From contig HF989914.1 in assembly GCA_000432255.1 (NCBI GenBank), positions 11,270 to 75,269 of the forward strand: 64,000 bases of DNA, read 5' to 3'. The notes below the pieces were generated by a model. It saw only the letters and a list, made by a program, of their open reading frames with translations, did not search any database and was not told the origin of the DNA. This DNA is from Acholeplasma sp. CAG:878. GTDB lineage: Bacteria > Bacillota_I > Bacilli_A > RF39 > UBA660. The position numbers and the translations under genes were made by a program. This document shows, in pieces, positions 6,804 to 56,524 of the stretch (within the stretch, counting starts at the first letter, position 1; every line of letters begins with the position of its first letter).

Positions 6804-7754
6804 TTAATTATTCACAACTTTTTTATTTTTGAATTCTTCGATGTAAACTTGACTAATATATTCAATTGTTATATCACTATATTTATAAATTTTGGTTTTA
6901 GAATAAGGAAACTGATAACAATAATCTTGATTATTTTTTAATCCCTTTCTTTTACATATATCTTGAAATTTATTTGATGTAAATTTATGATTTGGACCTA
7001 GCGATAGCTCCAATGTTTCTTTTATCTTTTTAATTACTTCTGTAGCAGTATAAGGATGAGTTTTATCGATATCTTTTGGAACATTAATTATTGTAGCTTT
7101 TTCTCCACCATCTCTAACAACTGTGTATTTAATATCAGCTTCTTGCTCTTTTTTAGTAGATACTAATCTTAATGTTTGAGTTAAATTCTCATCTGAATCT
7201 AGTTCTTTTTTTATTTTTTTAAGCATTAACAAATTACTAGGATTTAATATTAAAGAAGAAACATCTTTATCATCTCCAGGATTAACTAACGCAATATATG
7301 GTGTTACCTTTTCATTTAAATTATATTCTGGAAATTGTTTTTTGAAAAACTTATTATAGTTTGTTAAACATCTTTGAAAAGCAGGGGATAATATAAAATC
7401 ATATTCTGGTAATATTAGATGTGTTGCTTTATTTCTAATATTTCTAACAAAAGAAATATTGTTCTTTGTTTTATCTGTTGTACTTGTAAAAACTTTCTCT
7501 ACACATTCATCTAGTCCAATTGTTCTATTAGTATCATCTTTATAATTTATTACATTGATATCTTTTGCTTTATTAATAAGATATGCTTTTAATAATAATT
7601 CCCAAGCATTACAGATAAAAAAACAAAATCCTTCAGTTCTATAATTAATAGTGGGTTTATTTATTATCTCAATTGACATTAAATATGCTTCTTCTGATTT
7701 ATTTAGTAGTGCATTAATATATTTATTTAATTCTTCTGTTTTGATAACTATCAT
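6804..7754 (-). CDS. Hypothetical protein, possibly DUF3644-like (N-terminal ...IINKPTINYRTEGFCFFICNAWELLLKAYLI... motif)
   Basis: 316-aa ORF with no housekeeping homolog recognised. The N-terminal motif resembles, as far as I can recall, the DUF3644 family often found in defence/RM neighbourhoods. It is a monocistronic gene next to tRNA-Leu. Confidence 0.6.
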   Translation of the reverse strand: MIVIKTEELNKYINALLNKSEEAYLMSIEIINKPTINYRTEGFCFFICNAWELLLKAYLINKAKDINVINYKDDTNRTIGLDECVEKVFTSTTDKTKNNISFVRNIRNKATHLILPEYDFILSPAFQRCLTNYNKFFKKQFPEYNLNEKVTPYIALVNPGDDKDVSSLILNPSNLLMLKKIKKELDSDENLTQTLRLVSTKKEQEADIKYTVVRDGGEKATIINVPKDIDKTHPYTATEVIKKIKETLELSLGPNHKFTSNKFQDICKRKGLKNNQDYCYQFPYSKTKIYKYSDITIEYISQVYIEEFKNKKVVNN

Positions 7755-20690: not shown

Positions 20691-22088
20691 TTAACAATCT
20701 TTCATTTTTACCAAAGATAGTTCCCAACTTTCCATCGCATCGTAAACATCTAGGTATAACTCAAATGTTTCATTTAAATTAAGAAAAACTTCATTAGAAA
20801 GTTTGTTTCTATATTTTTCATAATCTCCTATTATACCTTCTTGATGTGGAATTGTTAATTTAATTCCATCTTTTGTTACTTCATTAACAATTATAGTGAT
20901 TTTACCCATAATCATTGGTTCATTAGTTATTACTTTATAATAGGTAATAATTGGTTGAACTTTTTGTTTTTCCAATTCTTCTGCTGTTCCATAACAACCA
21001 TGAAATGGAATATGTGTAAGTTTTATGTAATAATCATTATCTACTATATAATTAACTACATCTTTATTTGGAAAACCTTTGCTTATTATATCTTTTGCTT
21101 CCTCTGGATTTTCTCGCAAATATTTTAAAAATGTATATACACCTGTTGCTTTAAAATGAGGATTTAATTCTGCTATTTGCTTCGCTGTATACCCTTCTAT
21201 ATTAATAGCATTAGGTAGGGCATAAGTCTTTTTCATTAAATATAAAATAAACTCATTAAATATATCATCATATTTAGATAAATCATTAAATAACACTTTA
21301 GAAACATTATCGCTTTTTCCTATTTCATTTTTAAAATAATTAATAAGCAATTTAGAAAAGAAAGAATCGTTCACTTTATTTTCTATTATTTTCTCTAGCG
21401 GTAATTCCATTTTTATTTTGTTTTCATAATTTGATACTTTTTTAAAAAGTATTTCGTATTCTGATAACAAATCAATAAAATCATTCCAATTCTCAGGCTC
21501 TGCACCATTGCCATTTATTTGTTTATTTAATCCATCTATGTTAATTTTTAGTTTCCACGCTATACTTTTATCTCCAGAATATTTTGTATTCCAATCAGCA
21601 ATAATTGTTTTTAATCTATTACAAAATTCATCAAACTTCGAAAGAGAAATCGAAACATTTAAATCATTAATATATGATGTTTTACTATTATCTAAATATA
21701 ATAAAACACATTTATTATTCGTTTTTGTTAAAGATAAGCAATAATTTTCGACAACTACATTAATACTTTCTTTTTTTACTTTATCTTGTGAAAAATCATA
21801 GTTAGGAACACCATAAACCTTTTGTGGTACATTATCCTCTGGTTCTATAACATACTTTTCCTTATTTTCATTTTTTCTTTTTTCTTGAAGCCAATTTGGT
21901 ACTCCGTATACTTCTCTTGGCAAATTATCTTCAGATTCTATAGTATATTTTTCTTTAATTTCATCTTGTTTTGCCCTTGCTTCTTCTTCCCATTGCTTTC
22001 TAATTACATCAGGAATACCATAAACTATTTGAGGCCTATTATCTTCTGCCTCAATATTATATTTATCTTTTTTATTAAATAATCCCAT
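20691..22088 (-). CDS. Hypothetical protein with three N-terminal tandem repeats (KYxIExEDNxPxxVYGVPN) and a C-terminal domain of about 360 aa with no recognised fold
   Basis: Repeats: KYNIEAEDNRPQIVYGIPDV / KYTIESEDNLPREVYGVPNW / KYVIEPEDNVPQKVYGVPNY. The likely start is ATG 22088 (MGLFNKK), preceded by a GGAGGAAAATAAA SD; the first ATG at 22103 is inside that SD. It is the last gene of the island operon. Confidence 0.6.
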   Translation of the reverse strand: MGLFNKKDKYNIEAEDNRPQIVYGIPDVIRKQWEEEARAKQDEIKEKYTIESEDNLPREVYGVPNWLQEKRKNENKEKYVIEPEDNVPQKVYGVPNYDFSQDKVKKESINVVVENYCLSLTKTNNKCVLLYLDNSKTSYINDLNVSISLSKFDEFCNRLKTIIADWNTKYSGDKSIAWKLKINIDGLNKQINGNGAEPENWNDFIDLLSEYEILFKKVSNYENKIKMELPLEKIIENKVNDSFFSKLLINYFKNEIGKSDNVSKVLFNDLSKYDDIFNEFILYLMKKTYALPNAINIEGYTAKQIAELNPHFKATGVYTFLKYLRENPEEAKDIISKGFPNKDVVNYIVDNDYYIKLTHIPFHGCYGTAEELEKQKVQPIITYYKVITNEPMIMGKITIIVNEVTKDGIKLTIPHQEGIIGDYEKYRNKLSNEVFLNLNETFELYLDVYDAMESWELSLVKMKDC

Positions 22089-22130
22089 TTTATTTTCCTC
22101 CATATTATCAATTATATATTTTTCAACATA

Positions 22131-23225
22131 TTAATCATCACCATATACATCTTTTATGCAAAAATTAGGTTTTCTCTCATCAAAATTAAATGTATGAAAT
22201 GAATCTCCTAAGCAATATTTCCAATTTGAACATTTTTCACATTTACTACACTTTGTTCTGTTTTCGGTTCTAAAAATTTTAAATCTATTTTCCCATACAT
22301 CAACAAAATTATCAGTTTTGATATTTCCTTGAATAAATTCTTTTCTTCTTTCTACATCTGGACATATAAATATATCACCGTTGCTTAAAATGCTTGCTAC
22401 ATATAACCCAGCAGTACATATAAAATAAGTATCTCGTATTTCTTTTTCTAAATTTATTCCTAAATAATGACTACAACCATATTCAACATTCATTAAATTT
22501 TCTTCTCTTTTTTCTTTTATAAAATTGAATAAATATTTATAATCTTCTTTATCTAATAAAATATCGTTGTTGTTTTTAGCTCTTCCTATTGGGTCTACAT
22601 TTATAACTCTCCATGAAATAACATTTAACTCTTTCATCAAATTATATACATCTTCTAATTCATGAATATTTTTTTTGTTAGCAACTGTTGTAACTTGAAC
22701 AATCTTAATACTTGGTACTTGTTGTAATTTTTTTATGTTATTAATAATTTTATCAAAACTATTCGGTACTTTTCTAAAACTTTCATGAGTTTCTTTTAAA
22801 CCATCTAAACTAATAGATATAGTTTCCATATTAGTATCAATCATCTTATTAATAATTTCATCATTTATTAACATTCCATTTGTTGTCATGCCCCATCTAA
22901 ATCCAAGTTCACAAGCATACTTCATAAGAGTAAATAAGTCTTTTCTAACTAATGGTTCTCCTCCAGTAACATTTAAAAGTATTTCATTAGCATTATATCT
23001 TTCAGAAATATCTCTTAATGTTCTTTTTAAATCTTCTATACTTATTTCATCTTTTAAAATTGTATCACCGCAACTACTACCACAGTGTTCGCATCTTGCA
23101 TTACATCTTAATGTCACTTCTAAAAATAAATCTTTTAAAATTGGTTTTTCATAGAGTTTTTTTCTGTAATCAGCTAATTTATCCATGTTATCAATTTTAA
23201 TTTTTTTTATATATTCTTCATTCAT
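22131..23225 (-). CDS. Radical SAM enzyme with C-terminal SPASM domain (peptide/protein-modifying maturase type)
   Basis: CNARCEHCG (CX3CX2C), GGEPL, and a C-terminal Cys cluster C...C...CSKCEKCSNWKYC (SPASM, 7 Cys). AGGTG SD. Confidence 0.85.
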   Translation of the reverse strand: MNEEYIKKIKIDNMDKLADYRKKLYEKPILKDLFLEVTLRCNARCEHCGSSCGDTILKDEISIEDLKRTLRDISERYNANEILLNVTGGEPLVRKDLFTLMKYACELGFRWGMTTNGMLINDEIINKMIDTNMETISISLDGLKETHESFRKVPNSFDKIINNIKKLQQVPSIKIVQVTTVANKKNIHELEDVYNLMKELNVISWRVINVDPIGRAKNNNDILLDKEDYKYLFNFIKEKREENLMNVEYGCSHYLGINLEKEIRDTYFICTAGLYVASILSNGDIFICPDVERRKEFIQGNIKTDNFVDVWENRFKIFRTENRTKCSKCEKCSNWKYCLGDSFHTFNFDERKPNFCIKDVYGDD

Positions 23226-23236
23226 ATTTACACCTA

Positions 23237-24685
23237 TTATTTTTCATTCAGTATTTGAATAGACTTTTTTCTTTCTCCAGCATACCAATAAATTAAATGC
23301 TTTATACTTTTTATATCATCTAAATCATTTGTATTATTATATTGTTCTATATTTCTATTCACTATAGCACTTAAAATAGTCCCATCTTCTTGTATATCAA
23401 CTATATATAAGCAAATTCCTGTCCAACTTCTATATATGTAAAACTTATTATTTTCATAAAATGCAAACCAATGGTCTTCCATTTCTTTTGGAATATGTCC
23501 TTTTTTTAATTTGGTTAAATTTTCTTTCGTAAGTTTTAAATCTAATTTAATTTTTTTTGTTTCATTTGGCATATCAAGAATTTTCCAACTTTTTCTAGTT
23601 GCTATTTCATCTTCTTCGTATAAATATTTATCATAATCGTTTAATTTGTTAATAAATTTATTTATTAATTCAGATACATAATCTTTTTTTTGAATTACTT
23701 TTAACCATTCTTGTGGTATTTCATCAAAACCATAGATTAAACCTGCTAAACCACCAGTTAAAGCTCCAATAGTATCTGTATCATCACCGAGATTAACTGC
23801 TTTTAGTAAAGCATCTTTATAATTGTTTGTCGTTAAAATGGTCCACATAACTGCTTCTAAGGTATCAACAATATAGCCACTTGACTTTATTTCTTTTTCA
23901 CCTAAATTACTAATGTCATCTACTAAAATCCTTTTATATATATTTAAAGTAATTTCTTTGTCTCCTTTTAAAACATCACAATTATTAAACCATTTTTTTA
24001 GTAAAATATAAGCATCTTTTGGATTTATACCGTCTAATAAGTATTCTATATATTTTGAATAAATAAAACATCCAATTTTACTATATATATGTGAATGAGT
24101 TAAAGAAGAACCAGTATAAATAAAATTTTTAAATAAATTATCGTCTAAAATTAACATATTACCATAAATTGCTAATGGTAAAATACGCATCAATGAACCA
24201 TTTCCATTTGAACTAATATCATCATATCCACAATTAATTAATTTTTCTAATTTTGAATCATTAATGATATTTTCATTGTATTTTTCTTTTTTGTTTTTGT
24301 AATTTGTTAAAGAATAATTAGTAGAATTTCCTATATCAAAAACATTATTAAATGGCGTGTATTTACTATTAATTTTCCAATTTAAAAATGCATCTAATAT
24401 ATTTTTAAACATTGTATAAGTATTCATATCATCAATCGGTGTATTTACAATTGCATCCATGGTTGCTAATACCATAGAAGTATCATCACTCCAAGTTCCT
24501 TTCGGTTGATTATGCGTTCCATATTCTTCCATATCTTTTACTTTTTTTCTTTTTAGTATATTTCTACTTTGAAACTCAATTGGAACACCTAGAGCATCGC
24601 CTACAACAAATCCCATAATACTTGCTTTTATTCGATTTGATTTATTTAAATTTTTAGTTAAATTAGATTTATTACTAAGTATCAT
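23237..24685 (-). CDS. ADP-ribosylglycohydrolase (ARH/DraG family) with an extra C-terminal domain of about 140 aa
   Basis: N-terminal IMGFVVGDALGVPIEF and C-terminal GDDTDTIGALTGGLAGLIYGFDEIPQEW ARH motifs. Residues from about 345 to the end form an additional domain with no recognised homology. Confidence 0.85.
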   Translation of the reverse strand: MILSNKSNLTKNLNKSNRIKASIMGFVVGDALGVPIEFQSRNILKRKKVKDMEEYGTHNQPKGTWSDDTSMVLATMDAIVNTPIDDMNTYTMFKNILDAFLNWKINSKYTPFNNVFDIGNSTNYSLTNYKNKKEKYNENIINDSKLEKLINCGYDDISSNGNGSLMRILPLAIYGNMLILDDNLFKNFIYTGSSLTHSHIYSKIGCFIYSKYIEYLLDGINPKDAYILLKKWFNNCDVLKGDKEITLNIYKRILVDDISNLGEKEIKSSGYIVDTLEAVMWTILTTNNYKDALLKAVNLGDDTDTIGALTGGLAGLIYGFDEIPQEWLKVIQKKDYVSELINKFINKLNDYDKYLYEEDEIATRKSWKILDMPNETKKIKLDLKLTKENLTKLKKGHIPKEMEDHWFAFYENNKFYIYRSWTGICLYIVDIQEDGTILSAIVNRNIEQYNNTNDLDDIKSIKHLIYWYAGERKKSIQILNEK

Positions 24686-24696
24686 TATAACACATC

Positions 24697-26013
24697 CTAT
24701 ATTCTAAATTGTTGAAAAGAAGATTTGCAAACATTTAATTTTTCTGCTTCATGTATTTTTTCTTCTATATCTAATTGTTCTAATTTCTTATCTATTTCTT
24801 TTATTAAATTATCAATTTTAGTTGGTTCATTTGATAATTCAGTTTCAAATTGATTTCCAAAGTTTTCTTTTTTTAAACGAACAAACTGTTCAAGATTAAA
24901 CATTTTAATTTGCTTTTTTTCTAATACTGGCTTATCTATGTTCAATTTTTCAACTGGTATATATAATGAATCTACTTTTTCTTCATATTCTTGATTATTA
25001 ATAAATAATTTTATTGTTTTAGAAATTATTACTAAGTCACTTAGTTTAGTTATATAGTTTCCATATTTTTCAATCAAATCTTCGTAAGAACGTGTACCTA
25101 TTTCAAATCTAATATTTCTTGAAATTCCAGAACTTAACATATCACTTAATTCATTAACCATTTCTAATACATCAATATTATCAAGTACAAAATTAAATTT
25201 ATTATATTTTTTTGAGTTTATTAATATTGTAAATAATTGTTCAATAAACATTGTTGCAACATTATTTATATATCTATTTTCATCTTTGGCAATTAAGAAA
25301 ATAGCAGTCGGTTTAGTCATAATATCATCATAACTAAATGTAGTTTTGTTAAGTAAAACACTTAACATTTCTCTACTTACGTAAGTTCTTAATTTTTCTC
25401 TTGCAACTGAAACTATACTTCCTTTTGTTTCTTTTGGAGCAAGAAAAGTAGACGCCGCAAAAATATAAGATTGTGAACATGGATTTTTCAATTTAAAATA
25501 TTGAGTTATATAATCGCTAGTAGCATAATTGTTATTTATTCCATTAAACATTAAATTAACACTGTTTAAATTAATTTCTTCTTCCTTGCCATCCTCAAAT
25601 AATCCAAGCACAATACCAGTATAAAAATCTGATGCCGTATTTGACCAAAATGGGTCTATTGTAGAATTTTCGTAAAACATTATTTTTGCTTGTTTTTCTA
25701 TATAATCTATAGCTTCATCAATCATACCTTTCTTATATAAATTATAAGGATATTCTAAAGGATTCCAACCATCACTTTTATTTAAATCTCTTAAATTTAA
25801 TATAATAATATTATAGTTTTTATTCTTTAAATCATTATAATATTTATTTATGTATTCCTCTTTTGAATCTAGTATTAATAAACTTTGTCCATCATTAATC
25901 GCTTCCCCAACTAATGGAAACAATACATTTGATGTTTTACCAGATGAAATATCACCTGATACAATTAAATTTTTTTTACTATTAAGCATTTCTTTTAATA
26001 TTTCTTTTTTCAT
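24697..26013 (-). CDS. VirD4/TraG/TrwB-family (type IV coupling protein-like) P-loop ATPase core, without the N-terminal transmembrane segment
   Basis: Walker A LIVSGDISSGKTSNVLFPLV, then LLILDSKEEY, GWNPL and DPFWSNTASDFYTGIVLGL, which match the T4SS-DNA_transf / TrwB hallmark series (GxGKT...DpKgE...NPL...dpfW.nsA). Only 438 aa and no predicted TM helices. Confidence 0.7.
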   Translation of the reverse strand: MKKEILKEMLNSKKNLIVSGDISSGKTSNVLFPLVGEAINDGQSLLILDSKEEYINKYYNDLKNKNYNIIILNLRDLNKSDGWNPLEYPYNLYKKGMIDEAIDYIEKQAKIMFYENSTIDPFWSNTASDFYTGIVLGLFEDGKEEEINLNSVNLMFNGINNNYATSDYITQYFKLKNPCSQSYIFAASTFLAPKETKGSIVSVAREKLRTYVSREMLSVLLNKTTFSYDDIMTKPTAIFLIAKDENRYINNVATMFIEQLFTILINSKKYNKFNFVLDNIDVLEMVNELSDMLSSGISRNIRFEIGTRSYEDLIEKYGNYITKLSDLVIISKTIKLFINNQEYEEKVDSLYIPVEKLNIDKPVLEKKQIKMFNLEQFVRLKKENFGNQFETELSNEPTKIDNLIKEIDKKLEQLDIEEKIHEAEKLNVCKSSFQQFRI

Positions 26014-26389
26014 ACTTCCTCCTCAACACCTTTTCTTCAGTTGTTTCTTGTAATTCATTTATTTTTTTAAGAGCGCTTTGTTGTTGTAATATTTCTAATC
26101 TTTTGTATTTTAAACTTAACAAATATATTCTTTCTTCAATTTCTTTTTTCTTTTTTTCTAATATCTCATTATTCAAATGATTTTTATAAGTAGCAATTTC
26201 TTCTAAAGTAAAATCTAGAGATTTAAGTAATTTAATTAATTCGCATTCAATAACATTTTCATCACTATAATACCTATAACCAGTAAAATTATCTATTTGA
26301 CTTGGTTCTAGAACTCCATATTGTGCATAAAACCTTAAGGTTCTAACAGGAATACCCACGATTTTTGAAAAATCGCCAATCTTATACAT
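25982..26389 (-). CDS. MerR-family transcriptional regulator
   Basis: MYKIGDFSKIVGIPVRTLRFYAQYGVLEPS (MerR HTH), followed by a coiled-coil. The start at ATG 26389 has an AAAGGAG SD. The 3' end overlaps the ATPase gene start by 32 nt. Confidence 0.8.
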   Translation of the reverse strand: MYKIGDFSKIVGIPVRTLRFYAQYGVLEPSQIDNFTGYRYYSDENVIECELIKLLKSLDFTLEEIATYKNHLNNEILEKKKKEIEERIYLLSLKYKRLEILQQQSALKKINELQETTEEKVLRRKYEKRNIKRNA

Positions 26390-26700
26390 ATTATCTACTC
26401 CTTTTAATACCAACTATTCCTCCTTTCAAATAAAGTTTAACATTTCAGTCATATGGAGAGTCAATACCTTTTTGCATTTCATAACAAAAGTTTGATTATT
26501 ATAGTTTTAACAAAGTATTTTATTTTTTATATTATATTTACTTATTAACATTATAACATGTTTTTTCATATTTTGTTTAAATATTAAAATAATCAATAAT
26601 TTATTTTAAATATATAACAAAAAAATTAACTCAATTATACTGAATTAATTTTTTATAAATTTTGTTTCACATCATTTACAAATATACACTTTTTACTATT

Positions 26701-28823: not shown

Positions 28824-30047
28824 TTATATTAAATCCTTTTTATTATTCAAATATTCTTCTTTTGTAAGACCATACATAACTAAATCTTCTACACCACCAT
28901 AGTAATAAAACATTGCCTGCTTTCTAGTTCCTTCATACTTTAATCCAATTTTTTCCATTATTCTTAATGTTCCTTTATTATCTTTCGCACCACATGATTC
29001 AATTCTATTTAAATCTAGTTCATCAAAAGCAAATTCTAAAATTTTTTTAGATGCCTCTGTAACATAACCTTTACCCCATTCATCTTCCCTTAACCAATAA
29101 TCAATTCCAGCAGTTTTGGCTTTTTCATCATGAATATTTAAATATATAGTTCCAAGTATTTTATTGTCTTCTTTTTTTACTATTGTCCATCTATAATAGT
29201 CTAAATTGTCGTAATTAGATTCACTAAAATATTTTCTGTTTTTTTCTAAATCATTACCTAATTTAGTAGTTCCTAAATACCTTCTTAAATTTGGATTTAG
29301 TTGAATATAGAAAAATTCATCTATATCATCTTTAGTAGTTCTTCTATAAATAAGCCTTTCGCTTTCTAAAAAAATGGTTCCTTTGTGTTTAATTGGAATG
29401 TAATCATGTCCATTTAAATCAATTTTATAGTTTTCAACTAAATTGTGTTCACCAACATATAAAATATCATTATTTTCAATCCTAACAAATGAATCATTAG
29501 GCAAAATAGTTATAGGTACATAATTACTTACCTCAAAAACTTCTTTTAAATAATCTACATTGCTCCAAACTAAATGAGGATATATGTTTATATCTACAAG
29601 TCCTAATCCATCGTATTTTAGCACTCTATCTTCGTAAGTTTCATCTATGTATACTACTTTATTTGATTGATTAATTGCCCCAGCACTAACACCTATTACT
29701 ATTTTTTTGTTTTTAATTTTATTTATTAAAGAATATTCTTTAATAAAATTCATTTGTAATATAGGACTACCACCCATTAAAAATACTATATCTGCTTCAT
29801 CAATTAAAGTTTTAGCTTCTAAATTCTTTTTCCTATTATCGATTAAATTTGAAGAATTAAAAGTAATTCCTATTTTTTTAAAATTTTCTATAAAATTGTT
29901 AAATTTTAAATCATTTTTTTCATAAGCATCTGCTACAGATGATATGAATACAATCTTTGAATTGTTTTTAATATCCTTCTTTAAATATTTTCCTTGATTT
30001 TCATTAAATCCATCATTAGATATTGCACTAAATAAATAATTAATCAT
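28824..30047 (-). CDS. Fusion protein: N-terminal S51 peptidase (PepE-like) domain + C-terminal GNAT N-acetyltransferase (RimJ/RimL-like) domain
   Basis: N-terminal half: GGSPILQMNF...IVIGVSAGAINQ (S51 Ser nucleophile context). C-terminal half: GNAT motifs (RIESCGAKDNKGTLRIMEKIGLKYEG). Confidence 0.7.
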   Translation of the reverse strand: MINYLFSAISNDGFNENQGKYLKKDIKNNSKIVFISSVADAYEKNDLKFNNFIENFKKIGITFNSSNLIDNRKKNLEAKTLIDEADIVFLMGGSPILQMNFIKEYSLINKIKNKKIVIGVSAGAINQSNKVVYIDETYEDRVLKYDGLGLVDINIYPHLVWSNVDYLKEVFEVSNYVPITILPNDSFVRIENNDILYVGEHNLVENYKIDLNGHDYIPIKHKGTIFLESERLIYRRTTKDDIDEFFYIQLNPNLRRYLGTTKLGNDLEKNRKYFSESNYDNLDYYRWTIVKKEDNKILGTIYLNIHDEKAKTAGIDYWLREDEWGKGYVTEASKKILEFAFDELDLNRIESCGAKDNKGTLRIMEKIGLKYEGTRKQAMFYYYGGVEDLVMYGLTKEEYLNNKKDLI

Positions 30048-49104: not shown

Positions 49105-50532
49105 TTATTTTACAACATAAGGATTAGCACTTGTTCCACTTCCAGACACAAGCGTATCAGCACTTAGGTTCAAAACTGGGCGGACGCCACGAGTAGCGCT
49201 GACATAATCGTAGTTAGTAGTACCATCACTATTAGCATACCAAGCATTAGCATTAGCACTATTATACATATTACTGAAGCCGGCGGGGCTCATAGTCCAA
49301 TAACTACTTCCACTATTCAAGTAATATGGATAACTACGCCCTCTTACATAATACCATCCTCCAGCATAGATTGTCTCATCATATGTTACTAATCCTACTT
49401 TTGATGTTACTACTCCTTTTCCATTTCCATCTGTTGTACATTCAAATGTTGGTGTATATGATTCTTTTGCTGTCAATTTTGTAGAACCTGTTTTTAATTT
49501 AAAATTAGTTCCATCATATGCAACTCTTGCAGCCTCACAGAAATAGTTTCCACTTACTACTTTACTTGCATTATCTCCTGTTATATTGGTAGTAAACCAA
49601 TTATCAACTACCGTTTTAAGTTCTGAATTTGTATAATACATTTTATCATATGTTTTGTATGTACTATTAAATTTATTGTATCCAATACTTGATGTTAACA
49701 TTATTCTAATTGTTCCATCTTCATTAACTCTTAATATTCTATAGTCTTTTCCTGCAAATTTTATGTAGTTATTTGTTGGATTTCCTCTGAAATAATATGT
49801 TTTATTACCCCCCAATGTTTGGGCATATAATCCGCTTTGGTCACTTGTTTGCCATGAAGTTGTCCAAGTTTGGTCAGTTGCTATTACATTAGAGTTATTT
49901 GTTCCTAATATTGCACTTTTTAAGCCAACTGTATTACTAACTGTTATTTTTACAGTTGCTTCTGCAGTTTTTCCATTTGTTCCTGTTGCTGTACATTTTA
50001 CTGTATGGTCTCCTGCATCTAATGAACTTACATTTTCTACTTCACATGTAACTTGTCCGCCAGTTTTTCCAAATTTTACATTGAAGCAATTTTTGATTTT
50101 TACATCTGTTCCTTTATTTACTGTTACTGCTGCTTCTTTCGCGCTAATAGTAGGTTGAAATTCATCAACTCCATCTTTTTCGCATGTTACTTTACTTGTT
50201 ATTTTGTCATTTTCATCAACATTTGAACAAGTATAGTTTTTCATTGATGCGAATTTTACTCCGACAATTTTGATTCCTCTTTCATCACTATTTTTTGAAT
50301 TATCTATTGTCCATGTCCCCATGTATGGATGTTCTCCTGCTATTGTTAAATCTGCTACTTCTCCTGATAGATTAACTGTTCCATCAGTTGAATTTAATAA
50401 TCCTTCTGCATATTTTGTTCTTACTGTATCGATTACTCCATAGCAACTATTTTCTAATGACTTAATTTTTGCATGGTTCCTCGTTCTTTCCATCTTTAGC
50501 GCAAGTAACTTTACTATTAATGGTTCCATCAC
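49105..50532 (-). pseudogene. 3' portion of a prepilin-type paralog: second copy of the head module + Ig-like segment + shared C-terminal domain. It has no signal peptide and is frame-disrupted relative to 50462..50902.
   Basis: Homology to 1417..2613 begins at ...AKIKSLENSCYGVIDTVRTKYAEGLLN, exactly at the stop of the upstream ORF but in another frame. There is no class III signal peptide of its own. The C-terminal 200 aa are paralogous to gene 1417..2613 (MSPAGF...GVRPVLNLSADTLVSGSGTSANPYVV). Confidence 0.5.
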
Positions 50533-50902
50533 TATTTACATTTGTACATGTATAATCTTTCATTGATGCAAATTTTACATCTTTTATTTTTATTCCTCGA
50601 TTATCTGGATTACTTGAATTATCAATCTCCCATATTCCAGCGATTGGTTGTTCTCCCGATACTGTTATTTCTGTTACATTTCCTTTTGATTTTACTGTTC
50701 CATCTTCTGAATTTAATAATCCTTCGGCATACTTTGTTCTTACCCCATCAATTACTTCATAACAACTATTTTCTATTGACTTAATTTTTTCATTTTCGAT
50801 TACATTAAATATTATTGGAGTAGCTATTAAGGCTATTATTGCTAGTACTATAATGACTGCTAATAATTCTATTAATGTAAATCCATTCTTTTTATTTTTC
50901 AT
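50462..50902 (-). CDS. Prepilin-type protein, N-terminal module only (146 aa); forms a frame-shifted tandem arrangement with 49105..50532
   Basis: MKNKKNG|FTLIELLAVIIVLAIIALI has a prepilin motif, then one head module (IENEKIKSIENSCYEVID...KVTC). It ends AKDGKNEEPCKN* where homology continues in the +1 frame. Confidence 0.6.
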   Translation of the reverse strand: MKNKKNGFTLIELLAVIIVLAIIALIATPIIFNVIENEKIKSIENSCYEVIDGVRTKYAEGLLNSEDGTVKSKGNVTEITVSGEQPIAGIWEIDNSSNPDNRGIKIKDVKFASMKDYTCTNVNSDGTINSKVTCAKDGKNEEPCKN

Positions 50903-56161: not shown

Positions 56162-56524
56162 TTATTCTACCTCTTTAACATCAACTTCGTACCTAAGCCC
56201 ATCATTAGTATTTGTAACAGTAATTATAGTATCGTCACTAAATTTTTTACTACTTATTGGACTAATAACATCTTTTGTTATATATCCTTTTTCTTTTAAA
56301 TCACCTAGCGTTATTGTATAGCTTTGACTTAAATCCGGCAAAAGTTCTGGATTATCAGCAAAATAATTTTTTGTATTCTCAACAATACTATTAATTTGAA
56401 TATTATATGCGTTTTTTCTATTTTCTTTTAAACTTCTATCAACTATCGTAACAACAATCGTTGCAATAATACCAAGTAGTACAACCACTCCTAATAGTTC
56501 AACTAAAGTAAATCCTTTTTTCAT
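56162..56524 (-). CDS. ComGC/PulG-like major pseudopilin (prepilin-type N-terminus), orphan
   Basis: MKKG|FTLVELLGVVVLLGIIATIVV has a class III signal with Glu+5; 120 aa. It overlaps the murC stop by 4 nt. No comGA/GB or prepilin peptidase is present in the window. Confidence 0.7.
   Translation of the reverse strand: MKKGFTLVELLGVVVLLGIIATIVVTIVDRSLKENRKNAYNIQINSIVENTKNYFADNPELLPDLSQSYTITLGDLKEKGYITKDVISPISSKKFSDDTIITVTNTNDGLRYEVDVKEVE

Follow-up and report, generated by a model that had tools for sequence, protein, structure and literature searches.

The minus-strand gene at positions 24697..26013 of the 64,000-nt stretch of Acholeplasma sp. CAG:878 DNA analysed here (below, the window) encodes a 438-aa ATPase-like protein, which on both sequence and fold is a homologue of the VirD4/TrwB-type coupling proteins (T4CPs) of type IV secretion systems (T4SSs), ATPases that normally supply DNA to the conjugation machinery of bacteria. 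We call it T4CPl. It lacks the transmembrane (TM) helices of its relatives, carries substitutions at two positions of the catalytic site, is paired with the gene of a MerR-family regulator behind a conserved MerR-type promoter, is fused in other genomes to domains encoded elsewhere in the operons, and is a paralogue of the coupling protein of a chromosomal T4SS of related genomes. As an evolutionary and structural oddity it is well supported. Its role can be proposed only tentatively: the suggestion we prefer, to which we give slightly less than an even chance, is that T4CPl may bind nucleotide and serve, together with MerR, as a receptor or scaffold on which the products of downstream genes dock, being impaired in hydrolysis and not a motor. 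All window features described below lie on the minus strand.

Family assignment, catalytic site and origin

The gene was delimited from its open reading frame (ORF), Pfam and NCBIfam matches and a structural model. A reading made earlier from the sequence only had recognised a VirD4/TraG/TrwB hallmark series, and all its motifs are present in the 438-aa ORF: GDISSGKTS (aa 20–28), LLILDSKEEY (aa 45–54), GWNPL (aa 82–86) and DPFWSNTASDFYTGIVLGL (aa 120–138). Two Pfam profiles, PF02534 (T4SS-DNA_transf; E 8.8e-19, 68 bits at a cut-off of 20.1) and PF10412 (TrwB_AAD_bind; E 7.5e-9, 35 bits at a cut-off of 20.5), score above their gathering cut-offs, identifying a true VirD4-type homologue, while TraG-D_C remains under its own. 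The nearest NCBIfam model is NF045973, 'VirD4-like conjugal transfer protein, CD1115 family' (E 1.6e-37, aa 9–319), whose curated threshold of 250 bits is not reached (129.5 bits). In structural comparison of the model, T4CP structures score above VirB4, DndH-C and HerA. Assignment to another P-loop family (HerA, FtsK, AAA_10) was rejected on this ranking and on the lack of any such Pfam match. Nothing usable came from searching PDB sequences with either the single protein or a profile.

The protein has the fold of hexameric pumps, a nucleotide-binding domain (NBD) of the FtsK-HerA class with an all-alpha domain inserted into it. The insertion (aa 86–233; 25315..25758), delimited by the secondary structure of the model and by PF10412, consists of nine helices between two NBD strands and is the substrate-receptor domain of T4CPs. 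The C-terminal tail (aa 346–438; 24700..24978) contains an IKMFNLEQFV motif and a long helix (IDNLIKEIDKKLEQL), ends with SxFQQF and is kept across the family.

The catalytic site of T4CPs is present only in part. Walker A, GDISSGKT (aa 20–27; 25933..25956), retains G20, G25 and K26, which are invariant in 35 homologues, and R299 (25117–25119) is a putative Arg finger. In the Walker B strand FNFVLDN (aa 273–279; 25177..25197) Asn279 occupies the position of the catalytic Glu, and both D278 and N279 are invariant in the alignments. The sensor-1 position reads T307-R308-S309 (25087..25095) in place of the canonical I-Q-N. The LDN and TRS substitutions are invariant in close homologues. In the HerA/FtsK class as a whole, the defining features are the sensor-1 Gln at the end of the strand following Walker B and the Arg finger immediately before that strand (PMC10853773).

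No TM segment was found in T4CPl by a Kyte-Doolittle scan, and in the model a short N-terminal helix is followed directly by the P-loop strand (aa 15–20), in agreement with the earlier claim that N-terminal TM helices are missing. A TM segment lost to an overlooked upstream exon or a frameshift can be dismissed: an in-frame stop lies four codons before the ATG, with further stops upstream, and the preceding DNA encodes the MerR protein in another frame, an overlapping arrangement conserved in other genomes. T4CPs without a TM domain are known inside conjugation systems, an example being TraJ of pIP501, which acts with TraI (PMC7434980). Since such proteins form a recognised subclass, loss of the TM domain is not unusual by itself. 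Hence, of the claim that a T4CP stripped of its membrane domain is atypical, what holds is the setting, a small chromosomal operon in 64 kb of DNA free of conjugation genes.

That setting was confirmed in two ways. Neither a relaxase nor VirB4 nor any other T4SS gene was found within the 64-kb window, and tblastn of a complete T4SS cluster from related genomes matched the window only at the T4CPl ORF. The surroundings are housekeeping genes: leuS, metG, ppdK, folD, glyA, miaA, ruvAB, queA, fmt, ftsY, genes for topoisomerase subunits, murC, obg, tig and spoIIGA-sigE.

A word-indexed search with T4CPl retrieved 509 relatives. The best 120 of these are all at least 53% identical to it and mostly 430–465 aa long, and none of them has a name in any source. 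When 1.84 billion cluster representatives were searched in full with a HMMER profile, 3876 matched, 561 of them at E <= 1e-30. The top 150 matches split into two groups, canonical and soluble. Canonical forms are mostly 580–940 aa long and, where the N-terminus is complete, have two TM helices near residues 5 and 48; soluble forms are mostly 300–650 aa long, begin at profile position 1 and have none. The motifs differ accordingly: Walker A is IGxTGSGKT in the canonical and xGDxxSGKT in the soluble group, Walker B is NFILDEFANMP versus FNFxLDNxD, and the sensor-1 strand is IRFxxIIQNFAQL versus IKFxIxTRS.

Counted over clusters at 50% identity, at least 83 clusters from metagenome-assembled genomes (MAGs) of gut Bacillota have Asp-Asn ([LIVFM]DN) at Walker B; this is the family to which the short form singled out by the sequence-only reading belongs. 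The P-loop Lys is present in 83 of 83 such DN clusters and the complete GxxxxGK[ST] in 74, the second Gly being replaced in the other 9. Most have Thr-Arg at sensor-1, with TRS, TRD and TRN alone accounting for 48 of the 83. The 30 canonical forms compared with them have DE at Walker B, mostly with IQx at sensor-1, and the two N-terminal TM helices if the N-terminus is complete. The Arg finger (SR) is retained in 26 of these 30 and in under half of the DN forms.

On a neighbor-joining tree the smallest clade with every DN form has 93 tips, 84 of them DN, and is nested among the DE forms. DN forms are thus near-monophyletic, and the clade was probably derived once from a canonical T4CP, with catalytic constraint relaxed or altered later. 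In an alignment of 35 sequences about 70 columns are invariant, N279 and R308 included, which points to strong constraint outside catalysis; catalysis itself looks dispensable in the family, given the partial loss of the second P-loop Gly and the Arg finger. Full-length ORFs are kept at 40–74% identity in about 29 species.

For gene neighbourhoods we used 29 genome loci from GTDB representatives, nearly all of them MAGs of uncultured gut 'Bacilli', Bacillota or 'Tenericutes', and added 11 metagenome loci, some of which are duplicates or loci of canonical relatives. Apparent second T4CP-like copies in the loci proved to be artefacts that fusion proteins produced in single-linkage clustering. 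The family is absent from the 72,556 plasmids of PLSDB: the best matches, CD1115-family T4CPs of pLS20-like conjugation clusters, are 23–29% identical and none covers 80% of the query, so a plasmid-borne family was rejected. A phage origin was rejected as well, with no PHROG matches and, in one scan of IMG/VR, nothing except one relative at 23% identity.

The closest canonical relative of T4CPl is an 879-aa T4CP with two TM helices, 38.5% identical over 322 residues. Identity reaches 41.5% in the all-alpha domain and 41.8% in the N-terminal part of the NBD, and is 33.7% in the C-terminal part. The gene of this T4CP is the last one of a chromosomal pLS20-like Gram-positive T4SS cluster found in related genomes (L041, 1–12640; L035/L036; L016 and L020, 3–1781). 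Besides small TM proteins and a polytopic protein of 867 aa, the cluster encodes a TraC-like protein and a VirB4-like ATPase; a further product, of 775 aa, reads from its sequence as a probable cell-wall hydrolase. It lies beside DedA/VTT and RmuC, at the same chromosomal position in several species. These data suggest that the pLS20-like T4SS of related Bacillota is an old, possibly domesticated, system of conjugation type.

Both tail motifs of T4CPl also occur in the 879-aa protein. Because of this and the shared identity, T4CPl is taken as a lineage-specific paralogue of a conjugation-type coupling protein. In L016 and L020, the only family loci with a canonical T4CP gene within 10 kb, that gene lies about 8 kb upstream of the MerR–T4CPl pair. 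The claim that T4CPl stands outside any conjugation context therefore holds for the 64 kb of the window, but not for the wider lineage, where the nearest canonical relative belongs to a T4SS and is a close neighbour in two genomes.

The MerR gene pair, its promoter and the operon

The ORF of the MerR-family regulator occupies 25982..26413. It opens with a TTG at 26413; translation probably begins at the ATG at 26389 and yields a 135-aa protein (MYKIGDF...), whose homologues are 135–137 aa long and begin with MYKIG. The protein matches PF13411 (E 7.7e-17) and PF00376 (E 9.8e-11). An N-terminal winged helix-turn-helix (HTH) is followed by a coiled coil alone; Pfam recognised no effector-binding domain or metal-binding loop on the C-terminus, and no NCBIfam equivalog cut-off was reached. 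The HTH and the single Cys are invariant in an alignment of 24 loci. The 3' end of the gene overlaps the start of T4CPl by 32 nt, and MerR is directly upstream of T4CPl with the same overlap in 25 of the 33 loci for which the upstream region is available.

TnrA and GlnR are minimal MerR-family regulators under the control of a partner protein, glutamine synthetase. The MerR described here resembles them in consisting of an HTH and a coiled coil without a ligand-binding domain, and by analogy its co-expressed partner could supply the signal. The invariant Cys could make it a direct thiol sensor instead.

A conserved promoter lies at 26434..26464, with the −35 box TTGACT at 26459–26464, a 19-nt spacer read directly from the sequence, and the −10 box TAAACT at 26434–26439. 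The motif TTGACTNNNCANNNRACTGNNNTGTTA is found once per locus in 25 loci, the window included, always just upstream of the MerR gene and nowhere else in the window or the loci; its consensus is TTGACT-N19-TA(A/G)(A/T)(C/A)T. Spacers of 19 bp are a hallmark of MerR-type promoters. Thus the two features of a MerR-regulated operon, a regulator with an N-terminal HTH and a sigma-70 promoter with an over-long 19-bp spacer, are both present, and the promoter appears to control only the T4CPl operon. The spacer contains the dyad GCAGTC[A/G]ACTGC in many loci; in the clade of the window CATATG stands instead and the dyad is weak. A generic promoter scan, which is uninformative in AT-rich DNA and blind to 19-nt spacers, gave 69 sites against 57 expected, and neither Rfam nor a terminator scan gave a match in the operon.

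From the promoter to the start codon of MerR there is a short leader (26387–26430), which contains two strong Shine-Dalgarno-like sequences, AGGAGG and then AAGGAG, about 25 nt apart, in the window and in 24 other loci.

On the minus strand the promoter is followed by MerR, T4CPl and three genes separated by gaps of 11, 11 and 27 nt, and then by ppdK, with a 114-nt gap before it that carries a separate promoter-like site. The first of the three (23237..24685) encodes an ADP-ribosylglycohydrolase (ARH; aa 1–345, PF03747, E 1.2e-59), for which the Tri1 and DraG cut-offs of NCBIfam are not reached. Its C-terminal domain of about 130 aa, which we call domain X (aa 351–482; 23240–23635; KGHxPxxMEDHW...RSWTG), belongs to no Pfam family, and a database homologue search with it returned two fragments only.

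The second gene (22131..23225) encodes a 364-aa radical SAM/SPASM enzyme (rSAM; PF04055, PF13186), which scores 317 bits with TIGR04133, under the cut-off of 425. It is 79–92% identical across loci and is the best-conserved protein of the operon. The third gene (20691..22103) encodes a 470-aa protein, g470, with no Pfam match. It comprises three KYxIExEDNxPxxVYG[IV]P repeats (21789–22103), a core domain (21414–21779), a helical domain Y (21069–21407) and a beta-rich C-terminal domain (20694–21047). None of 113 homologues of g470 has a Pfam domain. Three folded domains are seen in an AlphaFold2 model; a fold search of the PDB with it gave no significant match, the core domain showing weak Mago-like similarity.

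The rSAM gene and the repeats of g470-like proteins (KYxIxPEDNxPQxVYG[IV]P) occur together. At least two repeats are present in 11 of 11 loci with an intact rSAM gene (L001, L003–L005, L007, L008, L011, L015, L026, L030, L039), and they are absent in 5 of 5 loci that have a g470-core protein and no rSAM gene. This suggests that rSAM may modify the repeats, in the manner of a maturase of ribosomally synthesised and post-translationally modified peptides or of a protein cross-linking maturase.

Downstream genes differ between loci. Directly after T4CPl the commonest gene is one encoding the g470 core domain (signature W..Y.G....W.I.L....I.G.G..P.NWN..I.LL..YE.LF), even in the distant members L033, L037 and L038. 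Domains X, Y and DUF4272 are each encoded once per locus, on varying polypeptides that include the C-terminus of T4CPl itself. Thus T4CPl carries domain X in P0096/L039 and a g470-like protein carries it in L005/L026, domain Y follows T4CPl in P0091/L040 and L006, and DUF4272 follows it in L010 and P0169; the 563-aa forms of T4CPl carry an unrelated C-terminal extension. Such shuffled fusions are Rosetta-stone evidence that proteins with X, Y and DUF4272 work as one assembly with T4CPl. For domains X, Y and the g470 core there is no Pfam family, PDB fold match or literature, DUF4272 being the sole Pfam exception, and a literature search on DUF4272 and DUF6508 found nothing relevant.

Large unannotated proteins of 830–1138 aa are encoded at the distal end of extended loci (L005, 16511–19927; L039, 15361–17853; L010, 10001–12493). 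They have a TPR-like N-terminus, DUF4272 and three more unnamed domains, and segments of these proteins are shuffled from one polypeptide to another. Encoded alongside them are a 311-aa membrane protein, a 305-aa protein with HExxH and a 250-aa protein that is JAB-like.

In L032 the gene pair lies among housekeeping genes, serS-VWA-MerR-T4CPl-dacA-rluB-rlmN-prpC-prkC. In L016 and L020 MerR and T4CPl are followed by two small genes and then by ppdK, which is the synteny of the window.

Possible roles of T4CPl

We consider T4CPl a probable captured paralogue of a Gram-positive VirD4-type T4CP that would no longer be a membrane-bound motor. Features kept are the P-loop Lys, the Walker B Asp, the entire all-alpha receptor domain, the ancestral C-terminal tail and a tightly coupled DNA-binding partner. 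Both N-terminal TM helices have been lost, as have the catalytic Glu and the sensor-1 Gln, replaced by Asn and Arg respectively. From these kept and lost features we propose that the protein binds nucleotide and probably a ligand of the T4CP type and hydrolyses ATP poorly or not at all. It would then serve as a cytosolic receptor, switch or scaffold. MerR and T4CPl would be co-transcribed from the MerR-type promoter with its 19-bp spacer and, since the 32-nt overlap couples their translation, made in fixed proportion. The g470 core protein, ARH (via domain X) and, in other genomes, DUF4272 proteins would dock onto T4CPl, which may also contact MerR itself.

For the biological role we favour surveillance or regulation of conjugative transfer, which may include poisoning of a resident T4SS, or a conflict or counter-invader system of the 'HerA/FtsK capture' type. 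HerA/FtsK ATPase domains captured together with HTH domains occur in counter-invader systems (PMC10853773), and in pIP501 the MerR/excisionase-like protein TraN co-elutes with TraJ, the T4CP without a TM domain (PMC10877727).

Of the two functions suggested by the sequence-only reading, repurposing as a DNA/protein translocase or as a sensor, the second fits the data better. Repurposing as such is the best explanation of a T4CP without a membrane domain in a small chromosomal operon. A translocase or motor is unlikely because Asn replaces the Walker B Glu family-wide, Arg replaces the sensor-1 Gln in most members and the P-loop is eroded, its second Gly being lost in 9 of the 83 clusters.

Several observations weigh against a receptor or scaffold without ATP turnover. 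Asn at Walker B lowers hydrolysis and need not abolish it, and Arg308 could compensate in part. MerR is absent in 8 of the 33 informative loci. In L002/L032, L012, L016 and L020 the MerR–T4CPl pair stands alone; scaffolding cannot be the whole function since the downstream genes are absent there. The operon has no nuclease or other obvious effector, and no defence-system profile of PADLOC matches T4CPl. In PADLOC-DB v2, ARH and g470 likewise have no match, rSAM has a generic viperin-like match only and MerR a match to its HTH only. A known anti-phage defence system is therefore unsupported by that database.

The alternative that survives best, though we consider it unlikely, makes T4CPl, as a hydrolysis-dead paralogue, a negative regulator of the T4SS of its own lineage or a decoy for it, acting as a MerR-switched chromosomal fertility control. 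It might poison mixed hexamers with the membrane-bound T4CP or sequester the relaxase or relaxosome via the all-alpha domain and the tail. The 38.5% identity to the T4SS coupling protein and the conservation of exactly these two regions agree with such a role, as does the distance of about 8 kb between the two genes in L016 and L020. Moreover, T4CPs mutated in the ATPase site lose conjugation and keep localisation and the binding of nucleotide and substrate (PMC7434980). However, no T4SS lies within the 64 kb of the window, and a decoy leaves the recurrent g470-core partner, ARH, rSAM and the domain fusions unexplained.

Slightly less probable is a working T4CP of the TraJ kind that serves a T4SS encoded elsewhere in the genome and receives its membrane attachment from another protein. 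There is precedent for T4CPs without a TM domain that work with a small membrane partner (PMC7434980), related genomes do carry a T4SS, and Walker A is intact in the window protein. Still, the T4SS clusters already end with a full-length two-TM T4CP of their own, the catalytic Glu is replaced throughout the family, the adjacent upstream gene encodes the cytosolic MerR and not a TraI-like membrane protein, no relaxase is linked, and the family is missing from plasmids.

We give a similarly low standing to an anti-mobile-element sensor, in which a host-captured dead T4CPl would sense conjugative elements and activate the operon via MerR. Here the all-alpha domain would recognise in the cytosol the relaxase or DNA of incoming or resident elements, and the shuffled docking domains would recruit variable partner enzymes: ARH, proteins modified by rSAM, and DUF4272 proteins.

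A cytosolic DNA translocase loaded by the MerR-like protein at a specific chromosomal site, much as accessory DNA-binding proteins recruit T4CPs or FtsK-type pumps, seems very improbable. The hexameric-pump fold and the coupling to a sequence-specific DNA-binding protein would suit it, but the catalytic Glu and sensor-1 Gln are missing, part of the family shows an eroded P-loop and Arg finger, and among MerR sites conservation extends only to a promoter with the classic 19-bp spacer. Least credible of all is that an integrative conjugative element decayed and left T4CPl behind as a relic without function: T4CP descent, the fragmented rSAM gene of L018 and L019 and the frameshifted gene pair of L017 are outweighed by full-length ORFs across about 29 species and at least 83 clusters, by some 70 invariant columns that include the derived N279 and R308, and by the conserved translational overlap and promoter.

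Returning to the receptor or scaffold that we prefer, its nearest known group are the VirD4-type T4CPs (TrwB of R388, Cag-beta, DotL and, in Firmicutes, the 'CD1115 family' of pLS20-like T4SSs), from which T4CPl differs in the absence of TM helices, the Walker B Asn, the sensor-1 Arg and the lack of a linked relaxase or T4SS. TraJ of pIP501 resembles it as a soluble T4CP with a MerR-like DNA-binding protein in the same gene set; its membrane partner is TraI, and the MerR/excisionase-like repressor TraN is encoded in the same operon (PMC7434980, PMC10877727). In contrast to T4CPl, TraJ sits in a tra operon with a relaxase and VirB4 and is required for transfer, whereas the T4CPl operon is chromosomal, has neither tra genes nor a TraI-like partner, and encodes an altered active site.

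Counter-invader systems of the capture type join a HerA/FtsK-class ATPase to an HTH and to an effector that is usually an endonuclease, and their neighbourhoods are mobile or variable (PMC10853773). The T4CPl operon has a captured ATPase, an HTH and a variable neighbourhood; in some species the pair lies in conserved housekeeping synteny. The systems described (DndH/DptH C-domain, Sir2-HerA, DUF4297-HerA) have retained both the sensor-1 Gln and the Arg finger and possess nucleases or NADases, unlike the T4CPl operon, which has no nuclease, matches no PADLOC model and has a degenerate active site. Degenerate FtsK-like ATPase domains also make up D2/D3 of EccC/EssC, the type VII secretion ATPase. 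Those fall in another clade and belong to a secretion machine, in fusion with an active D1 and a membrane anchor.

Both T4CPs without a TM domain and captured FtsK/HerA ATPases are already known. Our literature search on soluble or orphan T4CPs found nothing relevant, and no description of a chromosomal MerR-coupled VirD4-type clade lacking the catalytic Glu. The field treats coupling proteins as obligatory parts of type IV secretion, and a 2025 nomenclature review (PMC12857230) and a 2020 review of T4CPs (PMC7434980) discuss them only within it. Here a sizeable conserved clade has shed the anchor and the catalytic glutamate and is chromosomal and wired to a MerR switch. It would stand as a clear example of exaptation, that of the T4CP substrate receptor, and would extend the 'HerA/FtsK capture' idea to VirD4-type proteins. 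It also offers a natural 'Walker B mutant' for asking what T4CPs do beyond ATP hydrolysis, and defines an operon of dark-matter proteins in abundant, uncultured gut Bacillota, to which the family is confined. If the ligand is a relaxase, T4CPl would be a handle to block conjugation as well.

Other genes of the window

Proteins with a prepilin-type N-terminal methylation motif (PF07963) are encoded at 1417–2613, 49105–50902 and 56162–56524, all on the minus strand. At the second of these, the ORFs 50462–50902 and 49105–50532 overlap and resemble one large pilin-like gene broken by a frameshift or rearrangement; the product of this split pair is paralogous to that of 1417–2613.

A 316-aa protein with DUF3644 and an EC042_2821-like restriction-endonuclease-like domain is encoded at 6804–7754 (minus strand). 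Its gene, a possible defence gene, stands isolated, with a two-component system on one side and an ABC transporter on the other. The minus-strand gene at 28824–30047 encodes a 407-aa fusion of peptidase S51 (PepE-like) and GNAT acetyltransferase domains.

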